DNA of 64,000 nucleotides from Candidatus Parcubacteria bacterium. GTDB taxonomy: Bacteria > Patescibacteriota > Saccharimonadia > UBA4664 > JBIOIQ01. The DNA is taken from NCBI GenBank assembly GCA_963718875.1, contig OY970378.1, forward strand, positions 872,265 to 936,264, given 5' to 3'. Both the position numbers and the translations under genes were made by a program. Each line of letters starts with the position of its first letter. The first letter of the stretch is position 1. The notes beneath the pieces were generated by a model. It saw nothing but the letters and a program-made list of their open reading frames with translations. It was not told where the DNA came from and searched no databases. This document shows positions 790 through 62,430 of the stretch, in pieces.

Positions 790-1401
790 TCACAAGCACC
801 TTAACATGAGCATTATAGCATTATACTTATGCTTAAATCAAGCGTGTTACTTGCTTTGTGCTTGTTCGGCTGATAGAAGTTATATGATTTGCGTACTGTG
901 CATATTATATTTTTGTAGAGCCATTATTCGCTTGCTAAGCATAATATAAAACATCTATTAAATAGCATCGTCGTGCGGCTACAACTTTGACATGCAGCTT
1001 TGCTCTCAGCCTGGAGACTTTTTTACATACGAGCAGAAGAAACTAAAGATTTTTACTATAAGGCGAAAGTCGACCTATTTAAGGCGCTTAATTTAGGTCG
1101 ATTATCGCCTTATATGGGCTGCTATTTAGCGTCAACACTCAGATCATAGTTTAAGAGATACTGAACCCGGTTCGACCCTTCGACTTCGCTCAGGGAATAA
1201 ATTCAAGCTTACGGTCTTCGACTCTGCCCATTCGACTTCTCTCAGGGCGCCCTGAGTTTCATCGAAGGGTGAGGGAAGAGCCCTCAGGCTCAGACTCGAA
1301 CGAGCAGGCAAGTTCAGTATGACAGACGAGGGGTTTAGGAATTTTTGCTTAGTAGGGTTAAAGCCCCTAAATGGTTCTTTTAATGACCTTTAAGAGGTAC
1401 G

Positions 1402-5375: not shown

Positions 5376-6254
5376 GGTTCTGTCCACTAAAACGGAACAG
5401 ACATACTTTTAAGTAATATAAATGGGCTACTGAACAACTCTGGGTGGTTCTTTCTAGCCTGGAACTCTCTGAGTAATCCCGGTAAGAACTGATGCATGAA
5501 GCGGTCGCGGGTACGTCTGGTAAACCGATCCAGGCAGCTCCAGATCCCTTCAATGCGGTTGGTTGGTCCAAAGTGGCCAATGGAATGGTTGCAGATCTCC
5601 AGACCATAGCCAACTTCCATTAGGCCAAGGTGAGAGGCGTGAGCATCAGCAAAGATCAGGCTACCGAGAGTGGCATACTGATCGAGAAAACCTTCTATGC
5701 TATCCTGCTCACAATCTAGTATCTCAGCTAGTCTTACGAGGTTGGTTTCCCGGTCCACGATACCCATAACAATGTGTTGGTTACCATATTTCTGCCGACC
5801 TAGATAGCTCTGGTCTATCTCCAGTAGCCCGACTAACTGGCTCTTGTCGACTGGTAGTCTAGATCGCAAGCGTTCTAACCAGCGTTGGATCGTCCAGTAG
5901 GACAGCCCCGTTGAGGTGATAATGTCGCCAGGTGACTGCTTACCGCTCCAGCAAGTCACCAGTTCCAGAATCCTCCTCCAGCCGAGCTTAGACGACCCAA
6001 AGCCGACTTGTTTCTTTAAGCTCCATTTACGACGACAGGTGCCGCACCAAAGATACTGAGTAGTTATGTGGATGTTTGAGTGAGACATCCAAGGGCAAAT
6101 AGGGCCCTCGGGATAAAGATGTACTAGCACTTGGTTAAAACATTCTTGGTCTGTTACCGGTAGATCTGCTAATGTGGTCATTGGAACAAGTCTCCTTTTC
6201 TAACTGGTTAGTCCTAGTTAGATTGTAGCTTGTTCCGCTTTAGTGTAATGAACC
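5376..6254. mobile_element. IS1595-family insertion sequence (879 bp) with ~25-bp imperfect terminal inverted repeats and a 9-bp direct repeat (GAAAGGGCG) at both flanks
   Basis: Left end GGTTCTGTCCACTAAAACGGAACAG. Right end, reverse-complemented, is GGTTCATTACACTAAAGCGGAACAAG. Flanking GAAAGGGCG at 5367-5375 and 6255-6263. Single transposase ORF inside. Confidence 0.75.
5387..6181 (-). CDS. IS1595-family (ISXO2-like) DDE transposase with N-terminal zinc-ribbon
   Basis: 264 aa. N-terminal CPWMSHSNIHITTQYLWCGTCRRKW zinc ribbon. Length and architecture typical of IS1595. Sits inside the inverted-repeat-bounded element. Confidence 0.75.
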   Translation of the reverse strand: MTTLADLPVTDQECFNQVLVHLYPEGPICPWMSHSNIHITTQYLWCGTCRRKWSLKKQVGFGSSKLGWRRILELVTCWSGKQSPGDIITSTGLSYWTIQRWLERLRSRLPVDKSQLVGLLEIDQSYLGRQKYGNQHIVMGIVDRETNLVRLAEILDCEQDSIEGFLDQYATLGSLIFADAHASHLGLMEVGYGLEICNHSIGHFGPTNRIEGIWSCLDRFTRRTRDRFMHQFLPGLLREFQARKNHPELFSSPFILLKSMSVPF

Positions 6255-6352: not shown

Positions 6353-6543
6353 GTACCGCCAAACTGTCAGTAATAAATGTTTTTGATTATATGACTTCTT
6401 CTAGGAAGTTTTGTTAGACTTTTGGAACATTTTGACTGATGTTTTTTTTCTGATTAGCACTCAAAGCCATGAGAGGTTGAAAGAGAAGTTTATTATCGCC
6501 TTAGCCATTTAGCACAATAAAACTAGTGACAGTTTGGCGGTAC
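6353..6543. repeat. Pair of inverted 19-bp repeats (ATGTACCGCCAAACTGTCA / TGACAGTTTGGCGGTACAT) bracketing an AT-rich ~155 bp spacer; MITE-like or operator pair
   Basis: 6353-6369 is the exact reverse complement of 6527-6543. A third near-identical copy is at 62406-62428. Confidence 0.5.
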
Positions 6544-11440: not shown

Positions 11441-11504
11441 AAAACGCTTATGTCTATAATACCGTAAACGGAAGAATACTCAACCTTAGGAAGCGTTTAT
11501 TCTA

Positions 11505-11627
11505 ATTGTCATCCTGAAGAGGAAGGCCAGTATCAAATCGCTCGATGCGCCGTGGAGCATGGCCGCACCTACTGTTCAGGATCTCTTCTCTAGATTAAGA
11601 GGCCCTGAAACAAGTTCAGGGTGACAA
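11505..11627. repeat. MITE-like intergenic repeat, copy B. Terminal inverted repeats ATTGTCATCCTGAA / TTCAGGGTGACAAT, core GGATCTCTTCTCTAGATTAAGAGG.
   Basis: Core is 24/25 identical to 26373-26397. The TCTTCAGGATGACA end motif is shared with 26450-26466 and 34581-34598. Confidence 0.5.
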
Positions 11628-11701
11628 TTTTGGAGGTTCTTGGAGACAAAAGTGAGGGCAGTTCAGACACTTTTCTCGACAGAAATGATCCTTTTGTGAC
11701 A

Positions 11702-11749
11702 CGCTCCCGCCCACCCCAAGTGCTCAAAGTTTATTTTGAGCACTTGGGG
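11702..11749. repeat. Repeat element with a perfect 15-bp stem hairpin (CCCCAAGTGCTCAAA-GTTTAT-TTTGAGCACTTGGGG). Its first 27 bp (CGCTCCCGCCCACCCCAAG[T/C]GCTCAAA) recur at 12831-12858.
   Basis: Direct inspection. The two copies bracket a ~1.1 kb segment containing the high-GC ORF 12351..12800. Confidence 0.55.
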
Positions 11750-12097: not shown

Positions 12098-12350
12098 ACT
12101 GCAGTTCCTGCGAAATTGATCTGAAATCCAAGGATACACCTTGTGCGGTACCGATTTACGAAGTAACATCTTTTTGCATCACCCGAGGGACTAGTCTCTC
12201 AAAAGCGGTTGCTGTTGCACCGCCTTTTCTCAAGCTTTCAACCGACTGGTTGACGTCTTAAGAGAAGTTCCAGCACTTTTTATTGACGTATCCGATATTT
12301 TTATGCCATAATACTTTTGACCAAATTGCTCTCTCAAGGATGTCGACAAC

Positions 12351-12800
12351 ATGACCACAAGCACCTGGGTTGGATTCGACCGCGCCCTCGCCGTAGCACT
12401 GGAGCAGTACATCAAGCCGCAACTCTCCGTGAACTTCTTCGGCCCACTCTCAGTTGCCCAGCTGCTGGAGGCCGGTTACGGAGTGTACATCTCCGGCGAC
12501 CTCAAGGACACCAAGGTTCTCGTAGTCTACCAAGACGACGAGGGCAACACATGCGTTCGCCTCGGCAACCTCCTCGCAACCATCGCGGCAAACGTGATGT
12601 CCGCCCATGACACCAAGACCCTCGCTCAACCAGATGGCGATTGGGTCTGCGTTGGCGCCACCACGTTGACCCTCTGCTCTGCCTACGGCACCATCCCTGG
12701 CAGGGTCATCTACGTCCTCGATCAGGTCACGGATTTGGGAATTTCCGGCTTCGTCGCCGGCTACCGCGCCGGCCACTGGGATGGCGGGATCGTTCCCTAG
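12351..12800 (+). CDS. Hypothetical protein encoded in a high-GC island
   Basis: 149-aa ORF with GC-rich codons, in contrast to the flanking sequence. Many overlapping alternative-frame ORFs, typical of high GC. No recognisable domain. Confidence 0.45.
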   Translation: MTTSTWVGFDRALAVALEQYIKPQLSVNFFGPLSVAQLLEAGYGVYISGDLKDTKVLVVYQDDEGNTCVRLGNLLATIAANVMSAHDTKTLAQPDGDWVCVGATTLTLCSAYGTIPGRVIYVLDQVTDLGISGFVAGYRAGHWDGGIVP

Positions 12801-12830
12801 CTAGGCAATTTGGGCATGGGAGCGCTACTC

Positions 12831-12858
12831 GCGCTCCCGCCCACCCCAAGCGCTCAAA
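12831..12858. repeat. Second (truncated) copy of the 27-bp repeat GCGCTCCCGCCCACCCCAAGCGCTCAAA
   Basis: 26/27 identical to 11702-11728. The hairpin is only partly retained. Confidence 0.5.
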
Positions 12859-12895
12859 TATTTTTGAGAATTTAGGCTAGGATTAATAAGAGCTA

Positions 12896-13243
12896 TTAAT
12901 ACCGCAACAAACCTCTTCGCTTTAGTTCACTGAATACAGCAACATAGTATGCTGGGTGTTTTTGCCAATCCGAAGGGGTTGAGCTATTTACTATTGCAAT
13001 AATATCTTCGTCAGTAGCGGGCGTTTCGCCTGCACCGAGTAACTTTTCACGAGAACCAACATTGTGAAGTACCCCAGGTTGCAACTCAATCATTCCAGCC
13101 AAGACATCCATCATTTCGCCAAGCTTTTTTTCGTCTATGCCAGGCTCAATATAAGCATTAAACTCGGGCTCATCGGCTTTCCCTCCAGAGCCAGCGTCTG
13201 GTTCTATTCTTTTACCGCCCGGAAATTCAATAAGTTCTCCCAT
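12896..13243 (-). CDS. Hypothetical acidic protein
   Basis: 115-aa ORF, directly downstream of 13256..13747. Confidence 0.4.
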   Translation of the reverse strand: MGELIEFPGGKRIEPDAGSGGKADEPEFNAYIEPGIDEKKLGEMMDVLAGMIELQPGVLHNVGSREKLLGAGETPATDEDIIAIVNSSTPSDWQKHPAYYVAVFSELKRRGLLRY

Positions 13244-19322: not shown

Positions 19323-19393
19323 GTATCAATATTACCACTGTTGGAAGGGCTTAATGGCCGAGTGTTGATAAAATTATAATTTTACCTTAATAA

Positions 19394-19432
19394 ACTATCG
19401 CCGTAGCATCCCCTTCCGAGGGTGCTACGGCG
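19394..19432 (-). terminator. GC-rich hairpin (ATCGCCGTAGCA...TGCTACGGCGAT) immediately downstream of the high-GC ORF 19448..19897
   Basis: 12-bp perfect stem with extended pairing; A/T-rich after it on the minus strand. Confidence 0.5.
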
Positions 19433-19447
19433 ATGTTGGCGTCGCTC

Positions 19448-19897
19448 TCAGACGGTGCGAACGACGGTGCGCTGCGTGCAGTGCTTGACGCCCCGCGCGA
19501 AGGCGCGGGTGTGGAGGATGCTGACCTCGTCGCCGACCAGCAGGAGCTGGTTGGTCATTGCGTGGGCGCTCCCGTCCGCGGGCGCAGCCACATTGGCCGG
19601 AATGACCACCCCGTAGATCCGGTGGTAGCGGTCGAGGTCGGTCTGCGAGATGTAGTGGTCGCCACCGTGCGTGCGGTGATGCTCCACGCCCTTGCCGATC
19701 ATGGCCAGGGTTCCTCGCGCGAGGGCCTCGTTGCAGGGAACGCCGGCTGCCCGGCACTCCTGGATGTACTTGGCGACGACTTGTCCCTCGGTCGGCTTGA
19801 CCGGCGGCTGATCACCGGGGGGTAGGACGGCTCGGACGGCAGCGGTGACGTTGCCGACAGCTGAGGCAACACGCTGTCGGCGTGTAGTCGTACTCAT
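19448..19897 (-). CDS. Hypothetical protein in a high-GC island
   Basis: 149-aa ORF in a ~65% GC segment with many overlapping alternative-frame ORFs. No confident domain assignment. Confidence 0.4.
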   Translation of the reverse strand: MSTTTRRQRVASAVGNVTAAVRAVLPPGDQPPVKPTEGQVVAKYIQECRAAGVPCNEALARGTLAMIGKGVEHHRTHGGDHYISQTDLDRYHRIYGVVIPANVAAPADGSAHAMTNQLLLVGDEVSILHTRAFARGVKHCTQRTVVRTV

Positions 19898-20134
19898 TCT
19901 TGGACCATCTCCTTGTCGGACCCGCTCAGGATGATGCGAGTAAGGTTACTATATGCCCGCTTGTTCGAGAAAGTCAACAGTTGTTTATGCCGAAAAAAAC
20001 GTCTTTCTGTATCTATCACAGAGTAGGACAAATAAATTACTTATGAAAAAGAGGGCTACACGTAAAAAAGAGTTGTGTTGATACTTATTTTAAAAGAAAA
20101 TTTTTGTTTTTTGTACCTAGGGCCACATACAGGT

Positions 20135-26261: not shown

Positions 26262-26466
26262 ACTGTCATCCCGGACCGGAAGCCGAGCCAAACAAATGGG
26301 CAGCTCGGTGCTCCGGATCCGGCCATCGACTCTGAGGCCTGTAGTCCTCAGGCTCAGGCTCGAAGAGGATCTCTTGTCTAGATTAAGAGGTTCTCAAATA
26401 TTAGGAACGGCCATTTGATACTAGCCACGCCACGGCGCATCTTCGACTTCCTCTTCAGGATGATTG
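26262..26466. repeat. MITE-like intergenic repeat, copy C. Ends CTGTCATCCCGGA / CCTCTTCAGGATGATTG, core GGATCTCTTGTCTAGATTAAGAGG.
   Basis: Shares core and end motifs with 11505-11627. Also contains CTTCGACTTCCTC, which is related to the 25-bp repeat family. Confidence 0.5.
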
Positions 26467-32154: not shown

Positions 32155-32298
32155 ATAAACCCCTACTACCCCCTTAAAGTTTTGTAGGTGGATATTATAG
32201 CGATATGCGGGGCAAAAGTAAAGATTGTGACCGGAGACTGATTACTTATTTAAATAGAGAACCCCGAAAAAACTCGGTGTTCTCTCGGGGCGTGAACT

Positions 32299-32550
32299 TT
32301 AGCCCAGCATCCAGGCGACCTGTCGGCGCATCTGGCGCTTAGGGATGATTTCTTCCAAGTCGCAGAGCAGCATCAGGTGGAGGGTGTCGTTGACGTGGCG
32401 ACGAACCTGCCGCTCGAGCTGCTTACGCAAGGGCTTGGCGTTGCGGCCGAAAGAGTTCCAGCCGCCGTAGTGGAGCAGGGTACCAGAGCGGTTGCTACGG
32501 CGATCCGCCAGCAGGACTCTGTGGGGGTCGGTGTTGACGGTTCGGGACAT
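32299..32550 (-). CDS. Hypothetical Arg-rich protein in a short high-GC island
   Basis: 83-aa ORF. The segment 32285-32560 is markedly GC-richer than its flanks. Confidence 0.3.
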   Translation of the reverse strand: MSRTVNTDPHRVLLADRRSNRSGTLLHYGGWNSFGRNAKPLRKQLERQVRRHVNDTLHLMLLCDLEEIIPKRQMRRQVAWMLG

Positions 32551-32872
32551 GCGGACCTTCCTTTGCTGCTTACTTAGCAGCTATGAAGTCGCACATATAT
32601 CACCTCCAAAAGTCGATGAACTATAACTACACATTTATAACACATAACTACTTTAATTACAAACCGCGATACTTCTGGGCTATCATCCTATCCCCCCTTG
32701 TCATTCCCTATCGGAAGCGGAGCGCTCCGGATAGGGAATCTAAAAAAAATAAAAGAGAAGTGTAAAAATCTTTTATCGGCTATATGCATCAGCCAAACTT
32801 CCCACTACGAAGCTAAATTTGAAGCTGCGCTAAAAACTCATTATACTTATGCTGAAAATAAGCGGAGTCGTA

Positions 32873-34356: not shown

Positions 34357-34542
34357 ATGATTTGGGCAATGGAAGACGTAGAAGACAAAAAGCGCCAGGC
34401 GTGTTTAGAAAAGCTTACTTGGGAATCTAAAGAAATGGCGGAGGCTGCCCGGGCATATGCCGGTTGGCAGTATGGTGAGTCCAAAACCCTTGCCTACCCG
34501 TGCAAGCATTGTGGCAAGTGGCGTTTGGCCCGAGCAGTTTAG
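34357..34542 (+). CDS. Hypothetical small protein with a CxxC pair
   Basis: 61 aa, ...YPCKHCGKW.... Low support. Confidence 0.25.
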   Translation: MIWAMEDVEDKKRQACLEKLTWESKEMAEAARAYAGWQYGESKTLAYPCKHCGKWRLARAV

Positions 34543-34547
34543 TTTAA

Positions 34548-34598
34548 GAGATCCTGAAAGGTAGAAGCGGCTATCGCCTTTCTCTTCAGGATGACAGC
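34548..34598. repeat. Partial MITE-like copy D (TAAGAGATCCTGAAAGG...TCTCTTCAGGATGACAGC)
   Basis: Carries the right-end TCTTCAGGATGACA motif. Sits at the left edge of a high-GC degraded segment. Confidence 0.4.
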
Positions 34599-34599
34599 T

Positions 34600-35900
34600 A
34601 CGAGCGGGCCATGCGGTTAATTGAAATGTGATCTTAGGAAAGCTGATAGAGCGTTTGCCCCTCATATCCGTAGTCTTTTAGGAGGTGTCTGAAACCGAAC
34701 TGCTGCGCGGCCCGGTTGGCGTCCTCTAGGTCAGGCGAACTTGAGGCAACGTCTCATCCAGCCTCTGGACCTCCTCTCGATAGCTAGGCCCGGGCATCTT
34801 TAGGCGCTTTTCAGCGGACATATATTCCAGGATCGCGAGACTGCCTGGGAGTGTTGTATGTCGTTCAATGATACGCTGCGACCACCATCTGTTGGGTGAT
34901 CGTCACGGTTCGGCTAGCTCCGGCATGCCTGAAATTGGGCCAGTAGTGCCGAACCTCGTTGACCTTAGCGTGATTCGGATGGCCTTTTCGAAGGCTCCGG
35001 TGGCCTCGAGGCTTTGCGCCGGATGAGCTGGCGACTTCAGCGGGTGGCAGAAAGCCAAAACGAGAGCATATCGCCACGAAACCAATCTGGGCCAGACGGT
35101 TGCTCGAACCGTCATGTAGAGGTGCCTGCTGTGAGAGTCCGCCAGACCATTGGGAAGCGTAGCTGTTATGGCCCCATTATTAAGCTCTTTAAAAACTTAA
35201 GCGGACACAAATTGTCTGGGATGGGTCGTAGCAGTCCCCCGTCACACAACATCAGTCTGGTGTACTGGTTCAAGCTGAGCAGATAGGTCACGTACGCTCA
35301 CATGCTTTGATCCAGTCCGCGTTGGTCCGGTCGTAGAGCGATGATCTCCTTGTTTCTGAGTTGTGGCAGCTCCGCTCCGGACCAAAGGTTGACTGTCTTC
35401 GCGGCGCCCTGTAAAACTCACCGATCTGGAATCATCACCCGATCGGTCTTAGGTTTGCGCTTCTTTGGTCTGCACATCGGGAGAAGACAGGTACGCGTCG
35501 AGGCCGTACATCTGCCCCCGGGCGCTGTCGCGCAAGGTGCGTATTGACGTTGCGAGCATAGCCGAGCTGGTAGTAAAGGAATTGGTAGGCGCTTTTTTTA
35601 CGTCGTCCCACTATCTCATCGGGATTGGAGGCCATCGAGTTGAGGCCTGAGCACAATGATGTACCAGAATCGACCAATTATCGAAATCACCTGGTCGATT
35701 TCTGGCTGACCAGCTTAGCCGATTTCTAGAGTTTGAAGCTGTTTGTTGAGCGATTCAAGCGCTCGCTCCAGCATTCCGAGCCTTTCGGGATCAACATTCG
35801 GGCCTCGAACGTTGACAACTACTTGGGCGTCCGGCCCAACAGCCCGACCATGTACCTCGCTTGTGACTTTTGATGAGTTCGAAAACACATAGTACTATTT
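34600..35900. other. High-GC degraded segment with no intact ORF: only 60-90-aa fragments in all six frames
   Basis: GC-rich by eye relative to flanks. Fragmented ORFs 34865..35077, 34903..35115, 35014..35286, 35341..35547, 35435..35677. Likely relic of an acquired gene or element, identity not determinable by eye. Confidence 0.4.
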
Positions 35901-37233: not shown

Positions 37234-37325
37234 AACGGATATATAGCTACAAATTGTTATAAAGCCACTTAACATCCTGATCTGGTTGTATTATTTTAGC
37301 TATACACCTACAAGGAGGCTGCCTT

Positions 37326-37936
37326 GCAGTTAATCCCCGTCATTGTTTGTGCAGTTGTGATGGCGGCCTGTTCGGCGCCAACCCAGTCAACCGATCCCCC
37401 GAGTGCACCGACGCCTGGTAGTGAGTTAGCTACCACCAGCACACTTCCCAGCTACGAAGTCCTTGGAACCGGCGGATGATCTGCCGGAATCCGTGCTTTC
37501 TGCAGAATCTGGAAGTGCTTGCCTCGGCCTATCCGACCGGCGCCTAGAAGTGTGCACTGCCTATGTGTTCAACTCTTCATTAGCGGCCAGGCTGCCATAC
37601 TACAAATATGGTCGCAGCCCTAACTCTGCTCGGTCCAAAGCCGCCTTGGACCGGCTGGAGTCACGCTATAGCGGTTCCGCACTTGCCCAAATTCAAGCCC
37701 AGGTGAGGGGGTGGCCTGTCGGCGAAACCAACATTGACGTGCCAATAGTTCGCGTTGAAAGCCTTTCAGTGAGTACCGACGGCAACCAGGCAGTTCTAAC
37801 AACGCGAGAGAGTTGGGAGGTCAAGAGGGCAGGCGAAACGCTGCTGTTTAAGGAGCAAGGCGCCAGGCACGTGATCAAGCTGGAGAGAGTACCCGGCCTG
37901 GTGTTGCATAAGTGGGTGGTGACAGAGATCGCATAA
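37326..37936 (+). CDS. Putative lipoprotein, possibly one gene split by a frameshift between 37430 and 37480 (TTG-start lipobox segment plus ORF 37463..37936). Lies in a high-GC island.
   Basis: Frame 1 encodes LQLIPVIVCAVVMAACSAP... (lipobox AAC) up to the TGA at 37478. The overlapping frame opens at 37430 and continues for 157 aa. Confidence 0.35.
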
Positions 37937-38114
37937 GGTTGAAGGGGCGAGTTTACCGCCCCTTCAACCCCCGACTTTTGATAAATACAGCTACTTATCG
38001 TGCGAGCCCCAATTTGATTATGAGCAGTAAAAGTTAAAGCTCCATCCCGCTTAACGCGGGATGGAGCAGAATGCAACCCTTGGTTGCATAGGATGTAGAT
38101 TGGTTAGCCGTCCC

Positions 38115-38969
38115 CTACCCTTCGAGAGGCTTACGGCCAACAATCAAACCTCGGCCGTTGTTACCAATGCCTCCTTCCTCGAACCTAGCGATAAGCCCGG
38201 CGTCCTCGAAAGCCGGCCGGAACTCGGTGTGCCAGTCGAACATGGTGAGGTCATGAAGCTCGATGAAGTGCTCAGTTCCCTCGGGCCGAGCAACCAGGTG
38301 CTCGAGCTCCAGATGGATGACCTTGCCCGTTTTGGTGGAACGGCTAATGCGGACAACTTTCAGATCGGTCTGGTCCACCACCTGCATGCTGACATGGCCC
38401 GACCGCCACATGTGCGGCGACAGCCAAGGCTCAACGATCAACAAGCCGCCCGGAGCCACATGCCGAGCCATGTTGGTAATGGCGGCCGGAAGTTGTTCGG
38501 CCGAAAGGTGGCCAATGGCGCTGAACAAGCAGGTGACCACGTCGTACTGGCGGCCCAGGGTAAAGGTCACCATGTCGGCCAGGTAGAGCTGGATGCCGCG
38601 GCCGTAGCTGAGGCGGCCGGCACCGTGCTGAAGCTGGTCGAGATTCTGAGTGAAATTGCCATCAAGGCTGGTCCACAGTCCGGTCTCCACCTCTCTTGCG
38701 ATGGCGCCGCTGCGGTGGAAACGCTCCCAGGCTATCTGCAGCTGCGCTTCGCTGATGTCTAGCCCTTCCACCCGGAAGTGGTTGCGCAGGTGCTCCAGGT
38801 GCAAGCCAGTGCCGCAAGCTACGTCGAGCAGGCTGGGGACCTGATAGCGACGGTCAAACGATTGCAGTCGGGCCATGATGATGGCGTGCAGACGCTCAGA
38901 TTCACGACGATAATCTTTCATAGCCGTGTAAATGGCATCGTAAATCGATGCTGATTGTTCGTAGGACAC
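38115..38969 (-). CDS. Class I SAM-dependent methyltransferase (TylM1/DesVI-like motif I)
   Basis: LDVACGTGLHLEHL motif I. YDVVTCLFSAIGHL, GGLLIVEPW. Embedded in a high-GC island. Confidence 0.75.
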   Translation of the reverse strand: MSYEQSASIYDAIYTAMKDYRRESERLHAIIMARLQSFDRRYQVPSLLDVACGTGLHLEHLRNHFRVEGLDISEAQLQIAWERFHRSGAIAREVETGLWTSLDGNFTQNLDQLQHGAGRLSYGRGIQLYLADMVTFTLGRQYDVVTCLFSAIGHLSAEQLPAAITNMARHVAPGGLLIVEPWLSPHMWRSGHVSMQVVDQTDLKVVRISRSTKTGKVIHLELEHLVARPEGTEHFIELHDLTMFDWHTEFRPAFEDAGLIARFEEGGIGNNGRGLIVGRKPLEG

Positions 38970-39242
38970 AACGGTCCTTTCTGTGGTTGGGGTATTACCC
39001 CGGGATGGTCCCGGTGATAAACTTCTAAGCTTTAGAGGCTTGTCACCGGGACCCTACTTATATGTATCTAACATATGGGTTCCTTTATTTAGAACTTTGT
39101 AAGATTAGCATAAGTACCAAACTATGTCAATTATTGGTCGGCTGACTGACTAGTTATAGTCGGGCCAGCCTGGTGGCATAGGCAACGCCTTGCCGAACAT
39201 TAAGCCCGACTGCGGGTATGCTAACGCCCGAGGAGTAGGGCT

Positions 39243-54257: not shown

Positions 54258-54460
54258 GCTTGTTATTCTATATCCTTCAGGGCAATGTTGTGATGGTCAA
54301 ATTTCGTCTTTTTTGGCTGCCAACTCAATGATTCTATCTGCGATTTTATAACATCTTGATCGGCGTCAGACCCAGCAACACCAGTAATCAAAATTGATTG
54401 CTTCATGAAGGTAATCATAACAAAAAGATTCTACCAAAGTCTTCTGCGAAAAGTAACGGG

Positions 54461-54760
54461 CTAGCTTCCGGCAAAGGGTGACCCAAAGATGCCAACTGCA
54501 AGCTCTGTCCAAATTAAAAGGACAGATGCTACAATCACGATGGCAATAACGCCCCGGTACTTACCATTAATCTTTGTTGTTACTAATTCATAGACAAGAC
54601 CTGCGCCCATCAGCAAGGTGCCAATAACAACAAAATCCCTCAAGCCCCACTTAACCTCATTACTAAACTGCATTGCCACTAGGGGAACAAGCAAAATAAG
54701 CGCTGTTCCAATAATATAGCGGATAATGTTATTTGCTTTCATGATTTCACTCCTCTTCAT
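54461..54760 (-). CDS. Hypothetical small membrane protein
   Basis: 99 aa, 3 TM. Confidence 0.35.
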   Translation of the reverse strand: MKRSEIMKANNIIRYIIGTALILLVPLVAMQFSNEVKWGLRDFVVIGTLLMGAGLVYELVTTKINGKYRGVIAIVIVASVLLIWTELAVGIFGSPFAGS

Positions 54761-58619: not shown

Positions 58620-58700
58620 TGTTACATTATAGTATTTACGGTGGCCAAATCCTATATAGATATACTACGCTTATCGTATATTGATAACATAATAATTTCT

Positions 58701-58786
58701 TGGCTGGGGAGGAAGGATTACATTCTGTATCCATCGTCGCATGCTTGAAGTAAACTTCTGTGCGTGCTCCTCGTAATCGAACCTTC
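58701..58786 (-). repeat. 86-bp copy of the 3' portion (acceptor 3' strand, T-arm, 58-nt T-loop insert) of the aberrant tRNA-Gln-like gene at 59507..59642
   Basis: 84/86 identical to 59507-59592. Begins TGGCTGGGGAGGAAGGATT (the complement of ...AATCCTTCCTCCCCAGCCA). Confidence 0.6.
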
Positions 58787-59419: not shown

Positions 59420-59506
59420 TTTTGATATTAGCATAAAATCAGTAACTTAGTGGAACAATGCTGGCTGGGGAGAAGGTACTATGGTGGTCGATCAATACAC
59501 TCTTTT

Positions 59507-59642
59507 TGGCTGGGGAGGAAGGATTACATTCTGTATCCATCGTCGCACGCTCGAAGTAAACTTCTGTGCGTGCTCCTCGTAATCGAACCTTCGATCTCTT
59601 GAGCCAGAATCAAGCGCCTTATCCGCCTTAGGCGGACCACTC
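59507..59642 (-). pseudogene. Aberrant tRNA-Gln(CUG)-like gene: intact anticodon arm and T-stem with compensatory changes relative to the neighbouring tRNA-Gln, 58-nt insertion inside the T-loop, non-pairing acceptor and irregular D-arm
   Basis: Minus strand reads ...GGCG-CTTGA-TTCTGGC-TCAAG-AGATC-GAAGG-TTCGA-[58 nt]-AT-CCTTC-CTCCCCA-G-CCA. The 5' part GGAGTGGTCCGCCTAAGGCGGATAAGG cannot pair with the 3' acceptor strand. Confidence 0.5.
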
Positions 59643-59656
59643 CTTAATTGCTCATT

Positions 59657-59731
59657 TGGCTGGGGAAGTAGGATTCGAACCTACGATCTCCTGAGCCAGA
59701 ATCAGGCGCCTTACCGCTTGGCCATTCCCCA
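59657..59731 (-). tRNA. tRNA-Gln (anticodon CUG), CCA encoded
   Basis: TGGGGAA-TG-GCC-AAGCGGTAA-GGC-G-CCTGA-TTCTGGC-TCAGG-AGATC-GTAGG-TTCGAAT-CCTAC-TTCCCCA-G-CCA. Near-identical to E. coli tRNA-Gln in the D-arm and anticodon loop. U1-A72 pair. Confidence 0.9.
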
Positions 59732-59767
59732 GCAGATGAGCAATTACAATTCCAGATTATTTAAGAA

Positions 59768-59983
59768 TTACCGGTCTTTACCAGTCTTTAAAAAACTCTC
59801 AAGCTTTTTTGCTTCGGATTTTGTTTCATATCTTTCCGAATAAACCAGCTTCCAGGGACCACGATTCTTAGTATAGCGAGACTTACCTTCGTTATGCCAG
59901 ATCAGCCTAACTTCCACTTGCGAAGAATAGCCAACATAGTGCGTTCCTAAGGATTCACTTTTCAAAACATAGGTAGTAAACAT
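59768..59983 (-). CDS. GIY-YIG nuclease family protein (YhbQ/UPF0213-like)
   Basis: FTTYVLKSESLGTHYVGYSSQVEVRLIWHNEG...PWKLVYSERYETKSEAKKLESFLK matches the GIY-YIG core. The listed ORF extends to 60139 but the domain starts at MFTTYV. Confidence 0.65.
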   Translation of the reverse strand: MFTTYVLKSESLGTHYVGYSSQVEVRLIWHNEGKSRYTKNRGPWKLVYSERYETKSEAKKLESFLKTGKDR

Positions 59984-60162
59984 TTTTAGTTTCTTTTCTA
60001 GATTCCCTACCCGAAGCGCCAAGCCAGGCAATGGTTGGGCTTGGCTTTCCAATTCAGCCTTCGTAGCCACTTCGGCGAAGTAGGCTAGGGAATGACAGAT
60101 ACGGTGGTTTGAGGATTCACAGTCAAGCCTTAAACCCAAGAACTGGGTAATTGTACCTGTTT

Positions 60163-62085: not shown

Positions 62086-62430
62086 TTATAATCGCTCTCT
62101 TAAAAGCTGTTCAATAATTTGAATACTCCCCCTCTCAACCTGGAGCCACCGTCTTCCTCTAGAAGTAAGTCGATATTTGACTTGTTTAGAATCGGATTGA
62201 GCTGATTCTATTAACCCGATTTGAACAAGCCGCGGCAACTCACGATAAACAGCCCTATCATAAACAAATATGGTACCCATACTGTCATCGGCCATTTTTT
62301 TGTAAATTCCGTAGCCGTGATTTTCTCCCGCCAACAAGGAGGCTAATAAATACGTAACGAAAAGTCGCCTTTCGGTCATGGAGCCCCTTATCATTTTTCG
62401 TATAACTACCGCCAAACTGACAGTACCCAA
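62086..62430 (-). CDS. PadR family transcriptional regulator (start likely at MTERRL, 62376)
   Basis: GENHGYGIYKKMADDSMGTIFVYDRAVYRELPRLVQIGLIES winged-helix pattern. Confidence 0.65.
   Translation of the reverse strand: MGTVSLAVVIRKMIRGSMTERRLFVTYLLASLLAGENHGYGIYKKMADDSMGTIFVYDRAVYRELPRLVQIGLIESAQSDSKQVKYRLTSRGRRWLQVERGSIQIIEQLLRERL

Follow-up and report, generated by a model that had tools for sequence, protein, structure and literature searches.

Tagged DNA hairpin repeats and a candidate Ssn-type GIY-YIG nuclease gene in a Saccharimonadia-like genome

Introduction

This report deals with a set of short, tagged DNA hairpin repeats in a 64,000-nt stretch of contig OY970378.1 (assembly GCA_963718875.1, Candidatus Parcubacteria bacterium), and with a small gene for a single-domain GIY-YIG nuclease that lies beside one of them; the stretch at its full length is referred to as the window. 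A preliminary description, made from the sequence alone, had reported two copies (A and B) of an element resembling a miniature inverted-repeat transposable element (MITE), with terminal inverted repeats (TIRs) that end in a recurrent motif, a conserved core, and solo copies of the motif at the edges of high-GC insertions. What was observed is real, but it was divided up wrongly: both the "TIR" and the "core" are fragments of a single, smaller hairpin unit. Here the units of the window (Table 1), their distribution in metagenomes and the genes associated with them are described, and the possible explanations are weighed.

Hairpin units in the window

Read from the tag, a unit consists of TGTC, an 8-nt arm, a loop, the complementary arm, a C and a TCT(TAA...) tail. 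The 8-bp stem has ATCCTGAA...TTCAGGAT as its basic form and ATACTGAA, ACCCTGAA and ATTCCCTA as variants, and the loop measures 5 nt in the minimal form and up to ~143 nt in the window. Units C, D, E and F are singlets, while A and B are inverted dimers with their tags pointing outward and therefore looked like a MITE with terminal inverted repeats. Seven units (A1, A2, B1, C, D, E and F) have both the TGTC tag and the C after the 3' arm. Units E and F combine the tag and tail seen in A-D with a different stem (ATTCCCTA/TAGGGAAT) and are treated as a sister class; the 5' flank of E (CGTATCTGTCA) resembles the flanks of C and D, with CGT..CTGTCA in common. The arms ATCCTGAA, ATACTGAA and ATTCCCTA start with AT, and the A2 arm ACCCTGAA has C at the second stem position. 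All units are intergenic, C and D lying just 3' of genes, and a 61-aa open reading frame (ORF) at 34357-34542 ends at a stop codon in the tail of C.

Table 1. Positions and composition of the hairpin units and of other features in the window.
Feature	Position	Strand	Description
Copy A, inverted dimer	11503..11629	+	joined at TCTAGA; outer 15-bp inverted repeat AATTGTCAYCCTGAA
Unit A1	11507..11596	+	TGTC-ATCCTGAA-(56-nt loop with inner hairpin)-TTCAGGAT-C-TCTTCTCTA; exact 8-bp stem
Unit A2, minimal form	11592..11626	-	TGTC-ACCCTGAA-CTTGT-TTCAGGGC-C-TCTTAATCTA
Copy B, inverted dimer	26262..26466	+	additional GC-rich hairpins inside
Unit B1	26265-26320	+	TGTC-ATCCCGGA...TCCGGAT-C
Unit B2	about 26390-26466	-	tag decayed to AATC
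Unit C, singlet	34540..34597	-	TGTC-ATCCTGAA-(26-nt loop extending the stem)-TTCAGGAT-C-TCTTAAACTA
Unit D, singlet	1147..1326	-	TGTC-ATACTGAA-(~143-nt GC-rich loop with sub-repeats TTCGACTTCNCTCAGGG)-TTCAGTAT-C-TCTTAAACTA
Unit F, sister class, singlet	32699..32744	+	TGTC-ATTCCCTATCGGAAGCG-GA-GCGCTCCGGATAGGGAAT-C-TAAAA; DNA -12.9 kcal/mol, z -3.4
Unit E, sister class, singlet	59997..60105	-	CCGTATC-TGTC-ATTCCCTA-(loop)-TAGGGAAT-C-TAGA
Single-domain GIY-YIG nuclease gene, 71 aa, candidate Ssn-type	59768..59983	-	PF01541, E 2.7e-12
tRNA-Gln(CTG)	59657-59731	-	directly after the GIY-YIG gene
IS1595-family insertion sequence	5376-6254	-	transposase ORF 5387-6181; PF12762, E 8e-8

The recurrence of the end motif was borne out by a search of the window with up to 2 mismatches, in which the 14-mer CTCTTCAGGATGAC was found at 11508-11521 (- strand), at 26451-26464 (+ strand, 1 mismatch) and at 34582-34595 (+ strand), that is, 3 times against 0.20 expected, a count reached by 0 of 100 shuffles. 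The 24-mer recorded as the core, GGATCTCTTNTCTAGATTAAGAGG, is exact in A (11579-11602) and B (26367-26390), has no other site in the window, and is the junction at which the tails of two inverted units meet around the palindrome TCTAGA. An nhmmer comparison likewise pairs copies A and B (E 7e-5 to 2e-4). The two are collinear only with B taken on the opposite strand, and in that alignment the core runs opposite to the end motif, which its position at the tail junction of an inverted dimer explains. Since the exact 24-mer and the nhmmer match join A and B, the two full copies align beyond the short motif. A sensitive self-search of the window added a fourth copy, D, which the preliminary description had overlooked together with the sister units E and F.

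The remaining sites named in that description fared differently. At 34581-34598 the motif is not solo, being the 3' arm of unit C (34540-34597), a complete hairpin of 57 nt. The "solo motifs" at 19923-19940 and 37272-37285 differ from TGTCATCCTGAAGAGG at more than 3 positions and have no hairpin architecture. No separate high-GC island borders copy B, whose left half is itself GC-rich.

The architecture was also searched for in the window with a strict scan ((C/T)GTC, an 8-nt stem, a loop of <=200 nt, the exact reverse complement and C), which returned 6 sites against 0.67 in shuffles, with 0 of 100 shuffles reaching 6. Five of the 6 sites are units described here, and A2 escapes the scan solely through an A.C first pair. 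With 1 mismatch allowed in the stem the window counts were not above chance (50 vs 38; 19 vs 16), so no weaker unit can be called.

As single-stranded DNA the units give stronger folds than shuffled sequences, with z-scores of -2.5 to -3.7 for A2 (24 nt), C (45 nt) and F (40 nt), and the 8-bp basal stem is kept in A1, D and E around loops of 56-143 nt. The minimal unit A2 (-6.5 kcal/mol as a DNA hairpin, z -3.7) is identical to the commonest form in metagenomes. Copy A as a whole folds at -25.6 kcal/mol as DNA (z -4.7), and as RNA, the folding that had been proposed as a check, the prediction is likewise strong (-51.4 kcal/mol, z -5.4). Changes in the stem are compensated between the window copies, a C/G pair in C being replaced by A/T in D and a T/A pair by C/G in A2.

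The sequence TTCGACTTCNCTCAGGG occurs at 1179-1195 and 1231-1247 in the loop of D, a related sequence, TTCGACTTCCTCTTCAGG, lies in B (26433-26456), and a 19-nt stretch, CCTCAGGCTCAGRCTCGAA, is common to B and D; because these sequences recur, the expanded loops can be described as built of repeated modules. Immediately to the right of A, positions 11631-11653 agree with 1417-1439, at the 3' end of ORF 1402-2508 near D, at 20 of 23 positions with one gap, which may be chance. One Logan contig from the same sample ends inside A, at about 11618.

The same hairpin in metagenomes

Metagenomes were scanned with a pattern for the unit alone in which any base was allowed at the three variable stem positions (TTAAGAGNNNCTGAAN{5,35}TTCAGNNNGACA). 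At least 120 contigs matched, against an estimated ~14 expected (~0.5 for a 5-nt loop). Of the 112 distinct matches listed, 89 have a 5-nt loop, mostly ACAAG, and 90 have all three free pairs in Watson-Crick form, for which the chance value is 1.6%. Four main stem variants are found among the metagenome matches listed, and in most of these an inverted partner (TGTCATNCTGAACTTGTTTCAGNATCT) lies 15-20 nt upstream, giving dimers like A.

Covariation was assessed in the partner hairpins, which were anchored on GTCA only and of which 48 were aligned. In this alignment 98.2% of the cells are paired, and 40 double-sided changes are seen against 14 +/- 2.4 in shuffles (0 of 500 shuffles reach 40); the pairing collapses once the register is slid. 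The GTC is invariant in 48/48 partner hairpins, although GTCA served as the anchor, and the cytosine 3' of the palindrome (C28), a column that was unconstrained, is invariant in 48/48 metagenome hairpins as well. The tail reads CTC or CTA throughout. The longer loops often contain a complete hairpin or other inserted sequence (loci L015, L053, L069, L076, L079 and L108).

At L024, L031, L033, L082 and other loci many dimers are enclosed by longer inverted repeats (20-45 nt) that are specific to a family, e.g. GAGCCTCTTGCAAAAGTCT...AGACTTTTGCAAGAGCCTC. The resulting palindromic elements, of 130-200 nt, are repeated across contigs of a single metagenome with 99-100% identity, and two of them show possible duplications of 4-5 bp.

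Neither the window element nor the metagenome hairpins matched an Rfam family, at the gathering threshold or by E-value. In genome contigs the pattern GTCATCCTGAAGAGRAAGG, which covers the window subtype only, gave 12 single matches in unrelated taxa, about the chance level, and none accompanied by CAGGATCTCTT. The 24-nt core had 0 matches in metagenomes and the viral scans gave 0, BLAST searches of plasmids with the doublet and with the GC-rich segment found no match, and literal sequence searches of papers yielded chance primer matches only.

GIY-YIG genes associated with the hairpins

The ORFs within 1.5 kb of a hairpin were clustered across the 120 metagenome loci listed. Only one protein cluster was present in at least 3 unrelated contigs, and it is a small single-domain GIY-YIG nuclease of ~95 aa. 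Where these genes were taken from hairpin loci, inverted hairpins with outward tags stood on both sides in 5/5. As this gene set had been ascertained through the hairpins, three homologues were also taken from the protein database irrespective of hairpins, namely P0203 (unlabelled), P0227 (labelled Nitrospirae) and P0164 (labelled WOR-3), and these are flanked on both sides as well (3/3). Their layout is TGTCATNCTGAA-N5-TTCAGNATCT, 2-35 nt, ATG...stop, 0-15 nt and an inverted hairpin ending in TGACA. Altogether 8/8 of the metagenome GIY-YIG genes examined, which encode proteins of 97-106 aa, have hairpins on both sides. The metagenome family is very large, with at least 8000 candidates, mostly on short contigs, as would be expected of repeats.

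The window, too, has a gene that is broadly of this type, and its product is a candidate for the cognate enzyme of the repeats. The Pfam match lies in ORF 59768-60139, and the gene proper comprises 71 codons, from 59983 to 59768, with unit E ~15 nt upstream of its start codon. The earlier statement that the window holds no recognisable cognate recombinase is thus wrong in spirit. The protein has only weak NCBIfam matches and no relative in the PDB.

Small GIY-YIG genes of the type found in the candidate phyla radiation (CPR) have a tRNA gene directly after them, in the same orientation, in the window (59657-59983) and at L146 (403-726), L147 (5001-5321) and L144 (5001-5312). The tRNA is tRNA-Gln(CTG) in the window, L146 and L147, and tRNA-Glu, with a 15-nt overlap, in L144. 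At L144, L146 and L147 the nuclease gene is preceded by a partial copy of the 5' part of the tRNA that short hairpins interrupt, which gives the impression that the gene was inserted at the tRNA. In the window, copies of the 3' part of tRNA-Gln follow the intact tRNA gene at 58697-58786, 59462-59481, 59503-59592 and 59583-59621, among them one 90-nt repeat that is 97% identical, which suggests repeated integration or rearrangement at this tRNA.

Other features of the window

Five GC-rich segments lie at about 12300-12900, 19350-19950, 32290-32560, 34600-35850 and 37300-39050. The fourth, of ~1.25 kb and 52-58% GC, contains no ORF of more than 90 aa, and neither a six-frame Pfam scan of 34597-35900 nor the plasmid search gave a match; it is probably a decayed foreign gene. 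A 34-nt direct repeat (11702-11735 and 12832-12865) that forms a near-perfect hairpin (CCCCAAGYGCTCAAA...) brackets a 1.1-kb segment with a 79-aa ORF and a high-GC 149-aa ORF (12351-12800), and this segment looks like an insertion with a duplicated terminator-like site.

Among ~56 window ORFs the Pfam search found no tyrosine, serine or Y1 recombinase. The IS1595-family element has imperfect 24-nt TIRs at 5376-99 and 6231-54 (GGTTCTGTCCACTAAAACGGAACA), unrelated to the hairpin motif, and overlaps the annotated start of a neighbouring 546-aa ORF. A 19-nt sequence, TACCGCCAAACTGWCAGTA, occurs three times, at 6354-6372, 6524-6542 and 62405-62425, two of these forming an inverted pair 151 nt apart beside the insertion sequence.

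The best named matches of the ABC transporter encoded in the window are from CPR bacteria, and its nearest relatives are 77% and 68% identical; no synteny was shared where the DNA of the relative was readable. The genome is Patescibacteria/Saccharimonadia-like.

Interpretation and alternative explanations

Two published systems are relevant here. Di Nocera (2013, BMC Genomics; PMC3733652) described a superfamily of repetitive extragenic palindromic (REP) sequences with a CGTC tag, comprising the families CGTC-1 to CGTC-4 and including Neisseria dRS3 and Rickettsia RPE-4 and RPE-6. The tag is unpaired, stands at one end and is changed to TGTC in many members and also to CCTC; the stems have 8-9 bp with A/T at the first and second positions, the loops have 4-5 nt, the 3-nt tail is near CCA, and the repeats occur mostly as inverted dimers with no dedicated transposase apparent. 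Chenal (2025, Nat Commun; PMC11893778) characterised the Ssn proteins, single-domain GIY-YIG nucleases for single-stranded DNA (ssDNA), whose hairpin targets are the Neisseria Transformation Sequence (NTS) and, more widely, Ssn-related motifs (SRM), defined as inverted repeats of 20-50 nt able to form a hairpin. According to that study SsnA (94 aa) binds the NTS (CGTCATTCCCGCGMAVGCGGGAATCYRG) as ssDNA only, and not in its RNA form, with cleavage a few nucleotides upstream of it; cleavage is governed by the GTC ahead of the palindrome and binding by the C just 3' of it, which is most critical, and the hairpin loop is dispensable and extendable. The ssn genes are typically flanked by SRM (NTS-ssnA-NTS), and in Neisseria the system modulates natural transformation (PMC11893778).

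We interpret the motif as belonging to REP-like DNA hairpin repeats of the CGTC/TGTC-tagged superfamily and the Ssn-related motifs, and put the probability of this reading at about 0.75. The observations on which it is built are the anatomy of the units, the compensated stem changes, the wide distribution of the hairpin and the linkage between hairpins and GIY-YIG genes. By analogy with the members in Neisseria and Wolbachia, the hairpin would form in single-stranded DNA, such as arises in replication or in DNA uptake. A small Ssn-type GIY-YIG protein would then bind it, with the C needed for binding and the GTC for cutting, and, if it behaves as SsnA does, would cut a few nucleotides upstream of the tag, for which the CGT..CTGTCA flank of C, D and E would be the region. 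The gene-bearing form would be hairpin-gene-hairpin, and gene-less inverted dimers would most simply be its non-autonomous derivatives. The GIY-YIG protein of the window, or a paralogue elsewhere in the 1.19-Mb genome, would act on A-D. The long loops of A1, C, D and E fit the dispensable, extendable loop reported for SsnA substrates (PMC11893778).

Several points weigh against this interpretation. The window protein is short (71 aa), and its gene has a hairpin on one side only, none standing 3' of it, where tRNA-Gln follows. The unit beside the gene is of the ATTCCCTA class, whereas A-D are of the ATCCTGAA class. Among the closest relatives of the protein the linkage is to tRNA genes and not to obvious hairpin pairs, and the identity of the protein to the hairpin-flanked metagenome type is 29% over 65 aa (pairwise E 0.004). 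The published SRM search sequence, HGTCWYN(0-2)YYVSBRHN(0-5)WNVSBRGN(0-2)RNCYNB, an operational pattern built from 29 genomes and not a definition in biological terms, fits no unit of the window and no CTGAA-type metagenome hairpin, whereas the NTS control is matched; its sole match in the window (54438-54468) is unrelated. The tail, finally, is CTC/CTA here against the CCA consensus of the CGTC-tagged REPs.

That the repeats are a classical MITE, i.e. a deletion derivative of a DDE insertion sequence whose transposase acts in trans on TGTCATCCTGAAGAGG TIRs, possibly with cargo, seems very unlikely to us, even though copy A has 15-bp terminal inverted repeats beginning TGT...ACA, many metagenome copies sit inside longer family-specific inverted repeats of 20-40 bp, and an IS1595-family transposase is encoded in the window. 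No target-site duplication was found at A, B, C or D, the singlets have just one "end", the supposed TIR is half of an internal hairpin, the TIR of the IS1595 element is unrelated, and near the hairpins of the 120 loci listed no transposase recurs, only the GIY-YIG gene. The motif is not a transposon end in the usual sense, because TGTC is non-palindromic and ATCCTGAA pairs with TTCAGGAT inside the same unit. Of the proposal of a non-autonomous element whose TIRs carry cargo, what stands is that the element is short, non-coding, palindromic and non-autonomous; the TIR has become a hairpin arm, and no cargo lies between paired ends. The inverted dimers of short tagged hairpins also look like REPINs (REP doublets forming hairpins) of the GTAG type mobilised by a REP-associated tyrosine transposase (RAYT; Y1, IS200-like), and TAG(A) recurs on the tail side. 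This we regard as highly improbable: the tag beside the stem is TGTC and not GTAG, no Y1_Tnp domain was found by Pfam in the ~56 window ORFs, and CGTC/TGTC repeats do not flank RAYT genes (PMC3733652), GIY-YIG genes being flanked instead.

A structured RNA, such as a terminator, an attenuator, an mRNA stabiliser or a small RNA conserved for a function in the transcript, could account for the strong predicted RNA fold of A and for intergenic units such as C and D just 3' of genes, and REPs do act as RNA elements in some species (PMC3733652). It is nevertheless quite unlikely, since the element has no Rfam match, units are found in both orientations inside dimers and with respect to the adjacent genes, the stems are not followed by a U-tract, and the oriented tag and tail fit positions of ssDNA recognition by a protein, the RNA form not being bound by SsnA (PMC11893778); a secondary effect of the units in RNA may exist. 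Two other identities were considered for copy A and the units. A hammerhead ribozyme was rejected, for although A contains CUGAAGAG and GAAAC, its stem III would have just 2 bp and Rfam gave no match, and an integron attC site was rejected on inspection for lack of the R''/R' core sites. That the units are sites of recombination or attachment through which foreign high-GC DNA entered is an unlikely explanation too. It agrees with the tag end of C abutting the degraded GC-rich segment at 34600-35850, with F lying ~140 bp from the GC-rich ORF segment at 32290-32560, with A lying ~130 bp from the 1.1-kb segment bracketed by 34-nt direct repeats, and with Neisseria, where dRS3/NTS flank variable genes, serve as a target of phage integration and influence transformation (PMC11893778). 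Yet 2 of the 5 GC-rich segments (19350-19950 and 37300-39050) have no unit nearby, the "solo motifs" cited there not being real, no island has units on both sides, and there is no integrase in or near the islands. With 6 loci the association has an estimated P of about 0.03 if positions are uniform, and is not significant if both kinds of feature are confined to intergenic space. Of the co-location with high-GC insertions that had been proposed, the direct contact at C thus stands; the association is suggestive at best, and compatible with both kinds of feature occupying variable intergenic DNA.

A more far-reaching variant is that the hairpins are insertion targets and ends of a GIY-YIG-driven mobile element, in which Ssn-type cuts would be the driving force for the spread of repeats as well as for the capture of foreign DNA. 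It arises because units or other DNA sit in loops (L015, L053, L069, L076, L079 and L108 in metagenomes; A1, C and D in the window) and one unit abuts a high-GC block, and we consider it rather doubtful. If true, it would amount to a GIY-YIG-based route of transposition or acquisition in a reduced CPR genome.

With the repeats read as tagged REP-like and Ssn-related hairpins, an apparent orphan MITE without an enzyme becomes a recognisable two-part system of tagged hairpins and a small GIY-YIG ssDNA nuclease. The Ssn system would be extended by the stem class ATNCTGAA/TTCAGNAT, which is very abundant in environmental metagenomes and lies outside the published pattern, by a host from the CPR, and by units whose loops are greatly expanded or nested. 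Candidates for new ssDNA cutting specificities are the 32-nt minimal hairpin and its partners of 97-106 aa. For annotation, the repeats explain contig breaks and spurious small ORFs, e.g. the CHPELVSGS at the N-terminus of the L131 ORF.

Comparison with known systems

The REP/REPIN-RAYT systems resemble the present one in their short tagged hairpins, in inverted doublets as the likely mobile or functional unit, in recognition as single-stranded hairpins and in a single small, dedicated enzyme gene with the repeats on either side. They differ in the tag (GTAG, against TGTC here) and in the enzyme, which is of the HUH/Y1 type and not GIY-YIG, and no RAYT is encoded in the window. The CGTC-tagged REPs are closer, as they share the unpaired TGTC tag, the 8-bp stem, the mostly inverted dimers, the intergenic location and the lack of an associated transposase. 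The 5-nt loop of A2 and of 89 of the 112 distinct metagenome matches listed lies in their 4-5 nt range, whereas most window copies have far longer loops.

With the SRM and the NTS the units share (C/T)GTC directly 5' of the palindrome and a C directly 3' of it, a fixed orientation, stems starting with AT, indifference to the identity of the loop, many gene-less copies and the arrangement hairpin-gene-hairpin around a GIY-YIG gene of ~95-105 aa. Units E and F (ATTCCCTA...TAGGGAAT) have the dRS3/NTS arms ATTCCC/GGGAAT, and A2, C and F, as hairpins of 24, 45 and 40 nt, fall within the size given for the inverted repeat. The stem class ATNCTGAA/TTCAGNAT and the CTC/CTA tail, in contrast, lie outside the published SRM pattern, the loops in the window reach 26-143 nt and hairpins nested in loops are common, and the window enzyme, of 71 aa, is tRNA-linked and flanked on one side. 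The host also differs, being a Saccharimonadia-like member of the CPR, and the term "Patescibacteria" is absent from the main text of PMC11893778. Seen against these systems, the repeats are not a new kind of element; they represent a sequence class and a host lineage that are new for a system already known and recently characterised.

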